NCBI GenBank assembly: GCA_965237905.1
Contig: OZ250172.1
Location: 2,981,784-3,013,783 of the forward strand
Source: Nitrospinaceae bacterium
Lineage (GTDB): Bacteria > Nitrospinota > Nitrospinia > Nitrospinales > Nitrospinaceae
DNA: 32,000 nucleotides
Direction of reading: 5' to 3'
Part shown: positions 12,480-13,978 of the stretch, piece after piece
Layout: every line of letters starts with the position of its first letter
Numbering within the stretch: the stretch's first letter is position 1
Position numbers and translations under genes: made by a program
The notes under the pieces: model-generated
What the model saw: only the letters and a program-made list of their open reading frames with translations
What the model was told of the DNA's origin: nothing
The model's database searches: none

Positions 12480-13112
12480 ATGTCGTTTGTTTATATGAAA
12501 ATCCTTGAATCCCGTCCCGAACGATACGATATAGGAATGGGTCTGTTGACTTTGGGATCGTTGACAAAAATTAAACGGCAAATCGCAGATCATGTTAATC
12601 CCGGAAATCGAGTCCTCGATTTGGGCTGCGGGACCGGAACATTGGCACAAATGTGCATTGAACGAGGGGCGCAGGTGGCTGGGGTAGATGCCAACAGCGG
12701 TATGCTTGAAGTGGCAAAGAGAAATTCGCCTTCTGCAAATTTTCTTAACATCAGCCTTAGCAATCTGGATGAGCATTTAGAGGATGAATCATTCGATATT
12801 ATTTTAAGCACTCTTGCATTCAGCGAATTGACCCGCGCAGAGAGACTTCATGTATTGAAACAAATCAAAAGAATCTTGAAAAAAGAAGGAAAGGTTCTTA
12901 TCGGTGACGAAATAATTCCGGAAAATTTATCCGCCAAATGTTTTTACTATGCTTTCAGATTACCCATGCGGCTTCTTACCTGGATCGTGACCCAAAACAC
13001 CACTAACGCTATTTCTAATTTCGATGATGATGTGCAGCAGGCGGGCATGGAAATAGTCAGCCGCAAGCCGTTTATGTTGGGCATGTTCATCCTTTTGGAA
13101 ATTAAAAAATGA
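12480..13112 (+). CDS. Class I SAM-dependent methyltransferase, translationally coupled to the HgcA-like gene
   Basis: Motif I VLDLGCGTGTLAQMCIERGAQVAGVDAN; FDIILSTLAFSEL; ATGA overlap with the next gene at 13109-13112. Start could be 12480 or 12495. Confidence 0.88.
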   Translation: MSFVYMKILESRPERYDIGMGLLTLGSLTKIKRQIADHVNPGNRVLDLGCGTGTLAQMCIERGAQVAGVDANSGMLEVAKRNSPSANFLNISLSNLDEHLEDESFDIILSTLAFSELTRAERLHVLKQIKRILKKEGKVLIGDEIIPENLSAKCFYYAFRLPMRLLTWIVTQNTTNAISNFDDDVQQAGMEIVSRKPFMLGMFILLEIKK

Positions 13113-13978
13113 TCGGTTGGATTAAAGACATCTATCAAACGCTATTTCGGTTTGCCCGGTTTCCGTGCGAACCTGAAACCATTGCTATCGGGAATCCTGC
13201 AAAATACTCGCCGGTTCTTGTCACCTGCAATTTTGATTATACGGTCAGACATTTAAAGAATTATTTGGAAGAAGAGCATATAGATTGCTTTCTTCTGGTG
13301 GTCAATACCAAAGGCACCAACGTCTGGTGCGCGGCGGCTGAAGGTATTTTTACAACCGAAACGGTTCTTGCCCATTTAAAGGTTTATAATGTAAGAGAGC
13401 TTGTTAATCACACCAACTTGATACTTCCGCAATTGTCTGTGGCTGGAGTAAAAAGAAAAGCTCTCAAAGAACATGGCTGGGAAGGAATTTATGGTCCGGT
13501 TTACTTTGCCGACTTAAAGGAATTTTTGGATAACGACTTTCGCAAGACCAAGGACATGCAGGCTCTAGAATATGGATACTGGGAGCGTTTTAAAATGGGT
13601 CTCAGCCATGCGGTTTTCTGCACATTAGTTTGCATACTTCCAATTTTTCTTTTTGCTTCCGAGTTGTGGCTTCAAGCCATCGTTTTAGTCTGGTACTTCG
13701 CTTTCAGTATGCAATTAATTGAACATTTTATTCCCTTCGATAGATTGCTATACAAAGGTCTAGCGCTTTCCTTGCCAATTCTGGTACTGGTGCTGTTTTT
13801 CTCAATAGATACTGTTTTGCAAATCCAGGTAATAATCGGGATTATTGCCTTAGGTGCTTTTATTGGATTCGATGCCCAAGGTCATTCCCATCTCGGGCAA
13901 AATCAGAATTCGGGAAAACTTACTGCTGGGATTTTTGCATTTTTGGCTTTATCTTATGGAGGTTTATTATTGCTATGA
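13109..13978 (+). CDS. HgcA-like membrane-bound corrinoid protein (CdhD/AcsC-type corrinoid domain plus C-terminal transmembrane domain)
   Basis: AIGNPAKYSPVLVTCNFDYTVRHLKNYL...FLLVVNTKGTNVWCAAAEGIFTTETVLAHL...LVNHTNLILPQLSVAGVKRKALKEHGWEGIYGPVYFADLKEFL matches my recollection of the HgcA cap-helix region across its length. It is followed by about 5 hydrophobic helices. Confidence 0.82.
   Translation: MIGWIKDIYQTLFRFARFPCEPETIAIGNPAKYSPVLVTCNFDYTVRHLKNYLEEEHIDCFLLVVNTKGTNVWCAAAEGIFTTETVLAHLKVYNVRELVNHTNLILPQLSVAGVKRKALKEHGWEGIYGPVYFADLKEFLDNDFRKTKDMQALEYGYWERFKMGLSHAVFCTLVCILPIFLFASELWLQAIVLVWYFAFSMQLIEHFIPFDRLLYKGLALSLPILVLVLFFSIDTVLQIQVIIGIIALGAFIGFDAQGHSHLGQNQNSGKLTAGIFAFLALSYGGLLLL

Follow-up and report, generated by a model that had tools for sequence, protein, structure and literature searches.

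The 32,000-nucleotide stretch of DNA analyzed here (referred to as the window) covers positions 2,981,784 to 3,013,783 of contig OZ250172.1 from a Nitrospinaceae bacterium (assembly GCA_965237905.1, forward strand) and encodes a 289-amino-acid (aa) protein resembling the mercury methylation protein HgcA. The gene would be the third of five in an operon whose MerR-type promoter, with a 19-bp spacer, is probably controlled by a divergently encoded, three-cysteine MerR-family sensor. Judged by its sequence, the protein is outside the bona fide HgcA family. We consider it about an even bet that the protein is anchored in the membrane, carries a corrinoid (B12), and belongs to the CpaM-associated "HgcAB-like" branch of the HgcA superfamily, that the ferredoxin has been lost, and that it serves a metal-induced methyl transfer from S-adenosylmethionine (SAM) through the methyltransferase CpaM and cobalt to a metal or metalloid.

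The HgcA-like protein and its separation from bona fide HgcA

The HgcA-like gene comprises the following features.

13109..13978, plus strand: Nitrospina-type HgcA-like protein, 289 aa; corrinoid-binding domain (approximately residues 1-150) and five-helix membrane domain, without a ferredoxin domain
13319..13342, plus strand: cap-helix motif NVWCAAAE; Cys74 (13328-13330) is the predicted Co-thiolate ligand, from the homologous Cys93 of true HgcA
13577..13972, plus strand: transmembrane (TM) domain, five predicted helices (residues 157-288; DSSP on the AlphaFold2 [AF2] model)

Translation of the open reading frame (ORF) places NVWCAAAE at residues 71 to 78, with both flanking peptides, GNPAKYSPVLVTCNF and LILPQLSVAGVKRKALKEHGWEGIYGPVYFADLKEFL, found around it. 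An initial annotation, made from the letters alone, had called the protein HgcA-like with a retained cap-helix cysteine, and translation, Pfam, and NCBIfam all bear this out. The protein matched Pfam CdhD (PF03599, E=2e-15) as well as the NCBIfam models HgcAB_like (E=1.4e-67, 228.7 bits), HgcA_corrinoid (E=1.9e-39, 135.7 bits), and the CFeSP (corrinoid iron-sulfur protein) gamma subunit (79.3 bits); the E values indicate homology rather than chance likeness. Cys74 was invariant in both alignments (A1 and A2), and the homologous Cys93 of true HgcA has been described as a Co ligand (Cooper 2020; Zheng 2024). The ratio of nonsynonymous to synonymous substitution rates (dN/dS) of the gene was 0.04-0.12, which indicates that it is functional.

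The AF2 model, computed from 77 homologues (predicted local distance difference test [pLDDT] score, 86.2; predicted template modeling score, 0.75), consists of an alpha/beta N-terminal domain followed by five long helices (residues 157-182, 184-203, 213-230, 235-258, and 269-288), in line with the "about five" TM helices expected from the sequence. Foldseek put the HgcAB model 9a0b_A, deposited and already published, first (316 columns, E=3e-10), ahead of CFeSP large subunits (root mean square deviation of 2.3-3.2 Å over ~125 residues), so the predicted fold agrees with a corrinoid domain. The membrane domain aligns with that of HgcAB-like fusion proteins, with R160, M163, P209, K216, and D255 conserved.

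One database protein (P0001; NCBI/ENA) is 100% identical to the window protein; its gene lies on a 3,086,607-bp contig, which would make the genome a complete or near-complete Nitrospinaceae one. Another 53 database homologues were counted at 57-89% identity, with 98-100% coverage for P0002-P0053. Nearly all of these Nitrospina-type homologues are about 289 aa long, a few being fragments, and the named ones belong to Nitrospinaceae. The next-closest relatives (33-41% identity) are proteins of 360 to 440 aa with 4Fe-4S domains, some of them named "HgcAB-like fusion protein." The motif NVWCAA[A/V/S/T]E was present in 106/106 Nitrospina-type relatives (53/53 database homologues and 53/53 metagenome loci), with AAAE in 47, AAVE in 5, and AASE in 1 of the database homologues. 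None of the 66 nearest fusions had GK; GG, SG, AG, and similar endings were found instead. The accepted high-stringency HgcA motif is N[V/I]WC[A/S][A/G/S]GK (Capo 2022), which NVWCAAAE does not match. The change from GK to AE is thus real, and it is evidently a fixed lineage signature. It is not a new variant, however: cap-helix substitutions in these sequences had been described before (Podar 2015; Villar 2019/2020; Lin 2023).

Among 185,579 species genomes scanned, Nitrospina-type copies were recovered in an uncultured Nitrospina metagenome-assembled genome (MAG), "Ca. Nitromaritima," Nitrospina sp. LS_NOB (locus L003; 80% identity to the window protein), and a "Nitrospirae" MAG (57% identity). 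Villar (2019/2020) named Nitrospina sp. LS_NOB among the carriers and gave both the N71/C74 numbering and a MerR1-DUF169-UbiE-HgcA-like-YHS gene context, all of which match the window. Given the LS_NOB identity, the numbering, and the gene context, the window gene is a member of this published group, and its proposed tie to the Nitrospina-type hits of environmental surveys holds. Mesopelagic hgcA-like genes with cap-helix substitutions and without hgcB were described by Podar 2015, and the maximum likelihood tree of Lin 2023 placed Nitrospina within a smaller, fused-hgcAB clade, with hgcB missing from all Nitrospina. The family, its motif substitutions, the missing hgcB, and the gene context have therefore already been published. 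In the available literature on Nitrospina HgcA-like proteins we found no mention of the 62-aa gene, the operator palindrome, or the CpaM identity of "UbiE" described below, and a literature search on "CpaM" returned nothing relevant.

For comparison with true HgcA, 80 genome loci were sorted by motif, ferredoxin motifs, and neighboring genes. A set of 34 loci had NVWCAAGK (one AAAK, one AAGE) and no CpaM. In 28 of them hgcB lay directly downstream, while the others mostly reached the contig end or differed in gene call; the encoded HgcB proteins have two CX2CX2CX3C motifs and mostly a C-terminal Cys pair. All 34 matched the NCBI HgcA equivalog NF040863 at E<=1e-80, and three true HgcAs scored singly reached 408-438 bits. 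The window protein, at 135.7 bits, scored about half of the cut-off (275 bits). The final Lys of the motif was present in 33/34 true-clade loci, in 0/40 CpaM-associated loci, and in 0/106 Nitrospina-type relatives.

Phylogenetic trees were built by neighbor joining (NJ), with the true-HgcA reference group set by NF040863 and hgcB, not by assayed strains. This group was recovered without the window protein in 94/100 bootstrap replicates with 124 corrinoid-domain columns and a CFeSP outgroup and in 100/100 replicates with full-length sequences (253 columns). Nitrospina-type proteins were monophyletic (support, 99-100), and a sister relationship between them and true HgcA appeared in 2/100 replicates. 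When CFeSP, a distant outgroup, was used for rooting, the long branch of the Nitrospina type moved to the base in 37-55% of NJ replicates, and these trees do not fix the point at which it joins the CpaM-linked proteins. Placement outside the true clade, half of the HgcA cut-off score, and the missing hgcB all uphold the divergence from bona fide HgcA that had been suspected. The accompanying term "paralogue" is not borne out in the sense of a duplicate beside a true hgcA; no other CdhD-type gene was found in the window.

Residue columns were compared among 37 true, 40 CpaM-associated, and 17 Nitrospina-type sequences. In eleven columns that are at least 85% conserved in true HgcA and differ in CpaM-linked proteins, the window protein has the true-HgcA residue once (T67). 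The residues K43, D47, R50, K78, and E85, whose conservation is restricted to true HgcA, are not kept, nor is F124, and the derived residues D43, V46, R47, and V86 are common to the window protein and CpaM-associated proteins. Likewise, the alignment of the window protein lacks the membrane-domain signature ...NFTGSSTFTSLSGV.KE..., which is conserved in 34 true HgcAs. No CX2CX2CX3C motif occurs in any ORF of the window, and hgcB was found neither in loci L001-L004 nor adjoining the gene in 59 metagenome loci (63 related loci).

In the structural model of Cooper 2020, Gly96 of the cap helix touches Arg58 of HgcB, so the altered end would sit where true HgcA meets its ferredoxin. The change from GK to AE is just one of several differences between the clades, and a Treponema MAG (L068:5782-6879) encodes a true-clade HgcA with hgcB, without CpaM, and with NVWCAAGE, a K-to-E change within true HgcA. 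Since the whole CpaM-associated group lacks the Lys while this true-clade protein ends in GE, the motif alone does not decide function. We also considered that GK might be ancestral because CFeSP has AAGKF. This was rejected, as the CFeSP Lys is offset by two positions (phmmer, MAFFT) and the HgcA Lys column holds A or D in CFeSP.

Linkage to CpaM and loss of the ferredoxin

The gene immediately upstream encodes CpaM, and its stop codon overlaps the start codon of the hgcA-like gene (ATGA).

12480..13112, plus strand: cpaM, class I SAM-dependent methyltransferase ("corrinoid protein-associated methyltransferase"); NF043040, 254.6 bits (cut-off, 180); Pfam Methyltransf_25/11/31

This arrangement was found in L001-L004 and in all Nitrospina-type loci that extend that far, and in 41 non-Nitrospina loci the gene directly upstream of the HgcA-like one encodes a CpaM homologue. 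Conversely, CpaM adjoined none of the 34 NF040863-positive hgcA genes. In about 11 loci, CpaM and the HgcA-like protein are joined in a single ORF of ~540 aa, with a small ferredoxin encoded downstream in nearly all. Both halves of the fusion were confirmed by NCBIfam in L026 and L022, and no mention of this single-ORF architecture was found in the literature searched.

Fusion loci, CpaM (N-terminal) joined to HgcA-like: L024, L026, L027, L030, L034, L040, L041, L054, L063, and L065 (Chloroflexi); L022 (Poribacteria)

The HgcAB-like model NF043039 was the top family model for the window protein, which covered model positions 1-240 of 350 (the HgcA head only) and scored 228.7 bits against a cut-off of 285. 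On the same model, fusions scored 367-388 bits and a CpaM::HgcA-like protein scored 266 bits. The window protein ends after TM helix 5, whereas the fusions continue with two CX2CX2CX3C motifs and a Cys tail; it falls below the NF043039 cut-off because it lacks the 2x[4Fe-4S] ferredoxin domain and the Cys-rich C-terminal tail. As a ferredoxin is fused or adjacent across the CpaM-linked group outside the Nitrospina type, the Nitrospina type is apparently the lineage that lost it, and this loss is, by the same comparison, the real distinguishing trait.

Two metagenome contigs (L140 and L141, with P0370) carry a DUF169-CpaM-HgcAB-like triad that lies between two radical-SAM genes, the upstream one of the B12-binding kind, which hints that the module is part of a wider methylation or natural-product cluster in some lineages. 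In the CpaM-linked fusion at L141:5559-6764, the motif reads DVWCAAGG, with the "invariant" Asn replaced.

Operon, regulator, and possible substrates

Besides cpaM and the hgcA-like gene, the operon and its control region consist of the following features.

11190..11603, minus strand: merR-family regulator, 137 aa from the ATG at 11603; Pfam MerR, MerR_1, MerR-DNA-bind
11612..11642, plus strand: MerR-type divergent promoter/operator; -35 TTGAAC (11612-11617), -10 TATATT (11637-11642), 19-bp spacer
11694..12404, plus strand: DUF169 protein, 236 aa, first operon gene; Pfam DUF169, E=2.6e-22
13975..14163, plus strand: acidic protein of 62 aa; CECTRSK invariant, plus CC at the C terminus in Nitrospina; alignment A3
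14129..14581, plus strand: double YHS/TRASH-like protein, rich in Cys (CPTCGC...CCQGC; CPTC...CRCPYC) and with a vicinal CC at its end; Pfam YHS, E=2e-14

The order merR, operator, DUF169, cpaM, hgcA-like, 62-aa CxC protein, and double YHS/TRASH protein is kept in L001-L004 and in 59 metagenome loci, the differences between loci following contig ends. All five operon genes had dN/dS values of 0.02-0.14 at a synonymous divergence (dS) of ~1 and are under purifying selection.

The regulator scored almost equally on the NCBIfam models for MerR (114.6 bits), CueR (111.1 bits), and CadR-PbrR (110.4 bits), all under cut-off. Its best PDB match was the Hg-bound MerR of Bacillus megaterium (4ua1, E=1.7e-28), followed by CadR and PbrR, and its three Cys residues align with Cys residues of 4ua1, the Hg(II) ligands of that protein. 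A MerR homologue was present in most related loci on contigs that extend upstream past the operon. The merR ORF as listed (229 aa; 11190-11879, minus strand) is 92 codons too long and runs over the start of the DUF169 gene; the homology-backed ATG at 11603 lies 8 nucleotides from the -35 hexamer. Between the -35 and -10 hexamers, an inverted-repeat finder detected a perfect 10+10 palindrome, AACCTGTAGT/ACTACAGGTT (11615-11624 and 11626-11635; 100% complementary), and a similar or identical dyad between -35- and -10-like hexamers was found upstream of the operon in L002, L003, and L004. On the minus strand, a promoter-like site (11668..11640, 10/12 match) faces merR.

The DUF169 protein has invariant C44, H62, C65, C165, and C183 (dN/dS, 0.02-0.14), and its position is conserved in L001-L003 and most metagenome loci. 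Its AF2 model (pLDDT, 92.4) had no fold match in the PDB (best E=0.1), and the triad in L141 shows the DUF169-CpaM-HgcAB-like association in an unrelated lineage as well. That DUF169 stands in for the lost ferredoxin was considered and rejected, because the L141 triad keeps an intact ferredoxin domain and because of the missing PDB fold match.

The start codon of the 62-aa ORF overlaps the stop codon of the hgcA-like gene (ATGA). The ORF had no Pfam or NCBIfam match, but its dN/dS of 0.05-0.14 indicates a real gene, which occurs in L001-L004 and in almost every metagenome locus reaching downstream. The YHS/TRASH gene, which may actually begin at 14153 (MTTDT) like its homologues, is conserved in position and encodes invariant Cys residues (alignment A4; dN/dS, 0.04-0.12).

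Previous research has shown that purified HgcAB transfers methyl groups from SAM via methyl-Co(III), with Co-thiolate ligation (Zheng 2024). In the CpaM-linked branch, the methyl group is plausibly provided or restored by a class I methyltransferase dedicated to this task. For the window operon, a soft metal ion would bind the regulator and switch transcription on; the operator and sensor anatomy are observed directly, and the inducer is the conjectural part. The HgcA-like protein would then bind scavenged corrinoid, with Cys74 as the probable lower ligand by homology to Cys93 of HgcA. CpaM would methylate Co(I) to CH3-Co(III) with SAM or, alternatively, might re-methylate and reactivate oxidized cofactor, as the AdoMet domain of MetH does; strict synteny and the natural CpaM::HgcA-like fusions suggest this step. 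The methyl group would next pass to a thiol-bound metal or metalloid, presumably presented by the YHS/TRASH and CxC proteins in place of the Cys tail of HgcB. Since the operon encodes no ferredoxin, electrons for the reduction of Co(II) to Co(I) would have to come from some cellular reductant outside it. A substrate other than Hg is possible for the HgcA-like protein. Hg(II) is the leading candidate, though unproven and, overall, less likely than not; Cd, Pb, Zn-type, or metalloid substrates are also conceivable. Ocean expression of Nitrospina HgcA-like genes has been reported by Villar.

Several points weigh against this metal methylation scheme. Hg methylation by Nitrospina was unconfirmed as of January 2026, and the cultured carriers of fused HgcAB, Pyrococcus furiosus and Methanococcoides methylutens, made no methylmercury (MeHg) according to the literature. 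In other phyla, the neighbors of the CpaM-HgcAB-like pair are not metal genes but those for TetR regulators or ABC exporters or of the radical-SAM type, so the ancestral substrate need not have been a metal; the clustering of such neighbors around the fusions is itself weak (TetR in 8/41 loci, ABC transporter genes in 4-6). The near-equal MerR, CueR, and CadR/PbrR scores, all under cut-off, point to no single inducing metal. AF2 confidence was lowest at the cap helix (pLDDT <50 at residues 76-79) and not low elsewhere. Moreover, the host is an aerobe or microaerophile in which Co(I) chemistry would be hard to sustain without a dedicated reductase, and the direction and partner of methyl transfer by CpaM are inferred from gene context. 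A stronger version of the scheme, in which the operon would be a self-contained, metal-inducible, ferredoxin-independent methylation machine, with CpaM loading the corrinoid protein and the YHS and CxC proteins delivering Hg(II), Cd, or Pb in oxygenated seawater, is unlikely. If true, it would constitute an oceanic methylmercury route mechanistically unlike anaerobic HgcAB.

The flanking of the pair by TetR, ABC-2 exporter, and B12-radical-SAM or radical-SAM genes in other phyla, the failure of fused-HgcAB organisms to make MeHg, and the sub-cut-off scores of the regulator would also fit methylation of a non-metal, which might be a small molecule, a Cys peptide (e.g., the 62-aa protein), or the head group of a lipid, with the regulator answering another stress; the MerR family takes in non-metal sensors too. 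We consider this decidedly unlikely, given the three-Cys metal site of the regulator and the two Nitrospina-specific downstream genes, whose Cys-rich YHS/TRASH and CxC products are typical of metal handling. Furthermore, the Cys-on corrinoid is the arrangement used for Hg methyl transfer in HgcA (Zheng 2024; Cooper 2020).

Retention of the cap-helix Cys, the corrinoid fold, and the five-TM architecture could instead mean that the protein is a functional equivalent of canonical HgcA, which would take the methyl group straight from SAM and methylate Hg(II), with CpaM and the other neighbors incidental and Nitrospina a true marine MeHg producer. Hg-MerR as the best structural match of the regulator, the GE ending of the true-clade Treponema protein with hgcB, and a correlation of ocean gene abundance and transcripts with MeHg reported in the literature are all in its favor. 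We nevertheless assign it only a small probability: the protein reaches half of the equivalog score, lies outside the true-HgcA clade, lacks the residues restricted to true HgcA and the C-terminal membrane signature, and has no HgcB, which true methylators need (Lin 2023; Zheng 2024). Nor is CpaM incidental, in view of the strict linkage, including gene fusions.

A non-catalytic role in membrane B12 binding, trafficking, or sensing has a low probability. Cultured Nitrospinae are B12 auxotrophs dependent on uptake according to the literature, Cooper 2020 notes Cys-on B12 binding in the transporter BtuM, and the operon is followed 1.1 kb downstream by a CbiQ/EcfT-like gene. However, such a role does not account for a SAM methyltransferase that is strictly paired with the protein and in places fused to it, nor for the metal-type regulator and the Cys-rich partners.

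The initial annotation had also raised the reverse reaction. Here the protein would detoxify MeHg or other methyl-metals by moving their methyl groups to the corrinoid. That the operon is of a metal-inducible type and its host is exposed to MeHg might suit this, and other metal-resistance genes have been reported for Nitrospinae (Villar 2019/2020). We found nothing else to support it and regard it as very improbable, since the obligate partner is a SAM-dependent methyltransferase, whose coupling to the corrinoid protein argues for methyl donation and would make the process effectively irreversible. The operon and window, moreover, contain neither a methyl acceptor enzyme (tetrahydrofolate [THF]- or coenzyme M-type methyltransferase) nor a merB-like gene. 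SAM-dependent methyl transfer is effectively one-way, from SAM to the acceptor.

That the gene is a decaying, functionless hgcAB remnant, as the missing hgcB, the motif outside accepted forms, and an operon G+C content of 43% compared with 49% for the window (compatible with foreign origin) might suggest, is hardly credible, as the selection analysis (dN/dS of 0.02-0.14 in all five genes at dS ~1) excludes a dead relic, the motif is invariant in 106 relatives, the operon order is kept, and marine transcripts are reported in the literature.

The G+C content falls to 39-46% over 11200-14600, compared with 50-57% in the flanks (10.0-11.0 kb and 14.4-17.8 kb), which is compatible with horizontal acquisition, as Villar (2019/2020) suggested. 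No Rfam family (e.g., cobalamin riboswitch) or tRNA was detected in the window. The CbiQ/EcfT-like "cobalt transport" membrane protein (15680-16423, plus strand) has no energy-coupling factor (ECF) ATPase or S-component gene adjoining it and is followed by genes for an unknown 156-aa protein and a 662-aa trypsin-like peptidase. Upstream of the operon lie a gene for an unusual fusion of an N-terminal TerB (tellurite resistance) domain with a C-terminal DnaJ J-domain (3910-4632, plus strand) and tandem CNNM/CorC-type (CBS-domain) putative divalent-cation efflux genes (4636-5991 and 5991-7289, both minus strand). Farther downstream, a 1632-aa ORF (22604-27502, plus strand) matched only multicopper-oxidase domains in Pfam (residues ~1124-1403), its N-terminal 1100 residues remaining without a match. 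Two convergent multiheme cytochrome c genes (29273-30520, plus strand; 30542-31984, minus strand) fit a Nitrospina-like host. One has cbb3/FixO-like parts, and the other has a C-terminal EB_dh (ethylbenzene-dehydrogenase gamma-like) domain, which we take to be of the type found in NxrC-like subunits of nitrite oxidizers.

Significance and comparison with known systems

Nitrospina-type sequences dominate "hgcA" counts in many open-ocean metagenomes and have been cited in the literature for MeHg made in oxic water. Our sequence comparisons indicate that, apart from the common fold and the cysteine, these proteins are unlike proven HgcA in every feature, and counting them as mercury methylases in ocean surveys stays unproven. 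Surveys should therefore list Nitrospina types apart from methylators, given the missing HgcB, the failed HgcA model, the CpaM-linked kinship, and the non-methylating carriers of fused genes. This study adds a calibrated exclusion from HgcA, a strict CpaM dichotomy with natural fusions, the ferredoxin loss as a distinguishing trait, the operator, the 62-aa gene, and evidence of selection. It also defines a minimal set of cpaM, the hgcA-like gene, and the genes for the 62-aa and YHS proteins, to which DUF169 may be added, together with a MerR/operator switch; if active, this set would give an aerobe a route to metal methylation that is distinct in its dependence on a SAM methyltransferase.

MetH (AdoMet domain and flavodoxin) offers an analogy only. 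There, reductive re-methylation of the protein-bound corrinoid by SAM sustains the Co(I)/CH3-Co(III) cycle and so keeps the cobalamin cycle running in aerobes. MetH and the CpaM system have no sequence or fold kinship, however; CpaM is a class I Rossmann methyltransferase, and the operon is without a flavodoxin or reductase.

The mer, cad, and pbr operons controlled by MerR-type regulators share with the window the divergent regulator gene, the dyad operator in a promoter with a 19-bp spacer, and the three-Cys sensor, and we take the window dyad to be nearer to CadR/PbrR/ZntR operators than to the Tn501 mer operator. Those operons control a reductase, lyase, or efflux ATPase, whereas the window operon holds a corrinoid methyl transfer set.

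In the CFeSP large subunit (AcsC/CdhE; PDB 2h9a, 2ycl, 4c1n, and 4djd), the C-terminal corrinoid domain is homologous to the window protein (E ~1e-13, 30-34% identity), with only the last ~120 CFeSP residues aligning (chain positions 319-439 of 445). CFeSP differs from the window protein in having a TIM barrel and, at its N terminus, a [4Fe-4S] domain, in lacking a membrane domain, and in placing Thr rather than Cys under cobalt, and it uses methyl-THF through MeTr. No genes for the CFeSP small subunit or MeTr were found in the window.

Bona fide HgcA and HgcB (Pseudodesulfovibrio mercurii ND132; NF040863/NF040864) are alike to the window system in the CFeSP-type corrinoid domain, the N-V-W-C-A-A sequence with the Co-ligand Cys, and the five TM helices. 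SAM is the ultimate methyl source of HgcAB (Zheng 2024) and probably that of the window system. The two differ in overall sequence (~30% identity), in GK versus AE, and in VTANY versus VTCNF; hgcAB loci have hgcB and never a separate SAM methyltransferase, and the window shows the reverse on both counts.

The "Nitrospina HgcA-like" proteins published from the sea (Podar 2015; Gionfriddo 2016; Villar 2019/2020; Tada 2020-2026; Lin 2023) are of the same family as the window protein. Both are 289 aa long, with N71/C74 and the MerR-DUF169-UbiE(CpaM)-HgcA-like-YHS context and without hgcB, and there is no essential difference between them.

The closest model family is the HgcAB-like fusion (NF043039) with CpaM (NF043040), the "fused HgcAB" of P. 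furiosus and M. methylutens. These fusions share with the window protein the derived residues, the absence of the cap-helix Lys, a homologous membrane domain, and, in the loci compared here, CpaM immediately upstream. No homologues of the 62-aa or YHS proteins were found adjoining HgcAB-like fusions of other phyla. The last motif position is G or A in the fusions and E in the window protein, and the MerR regulator, the 62-aa protein, and the YHS protein are extras of the window system.

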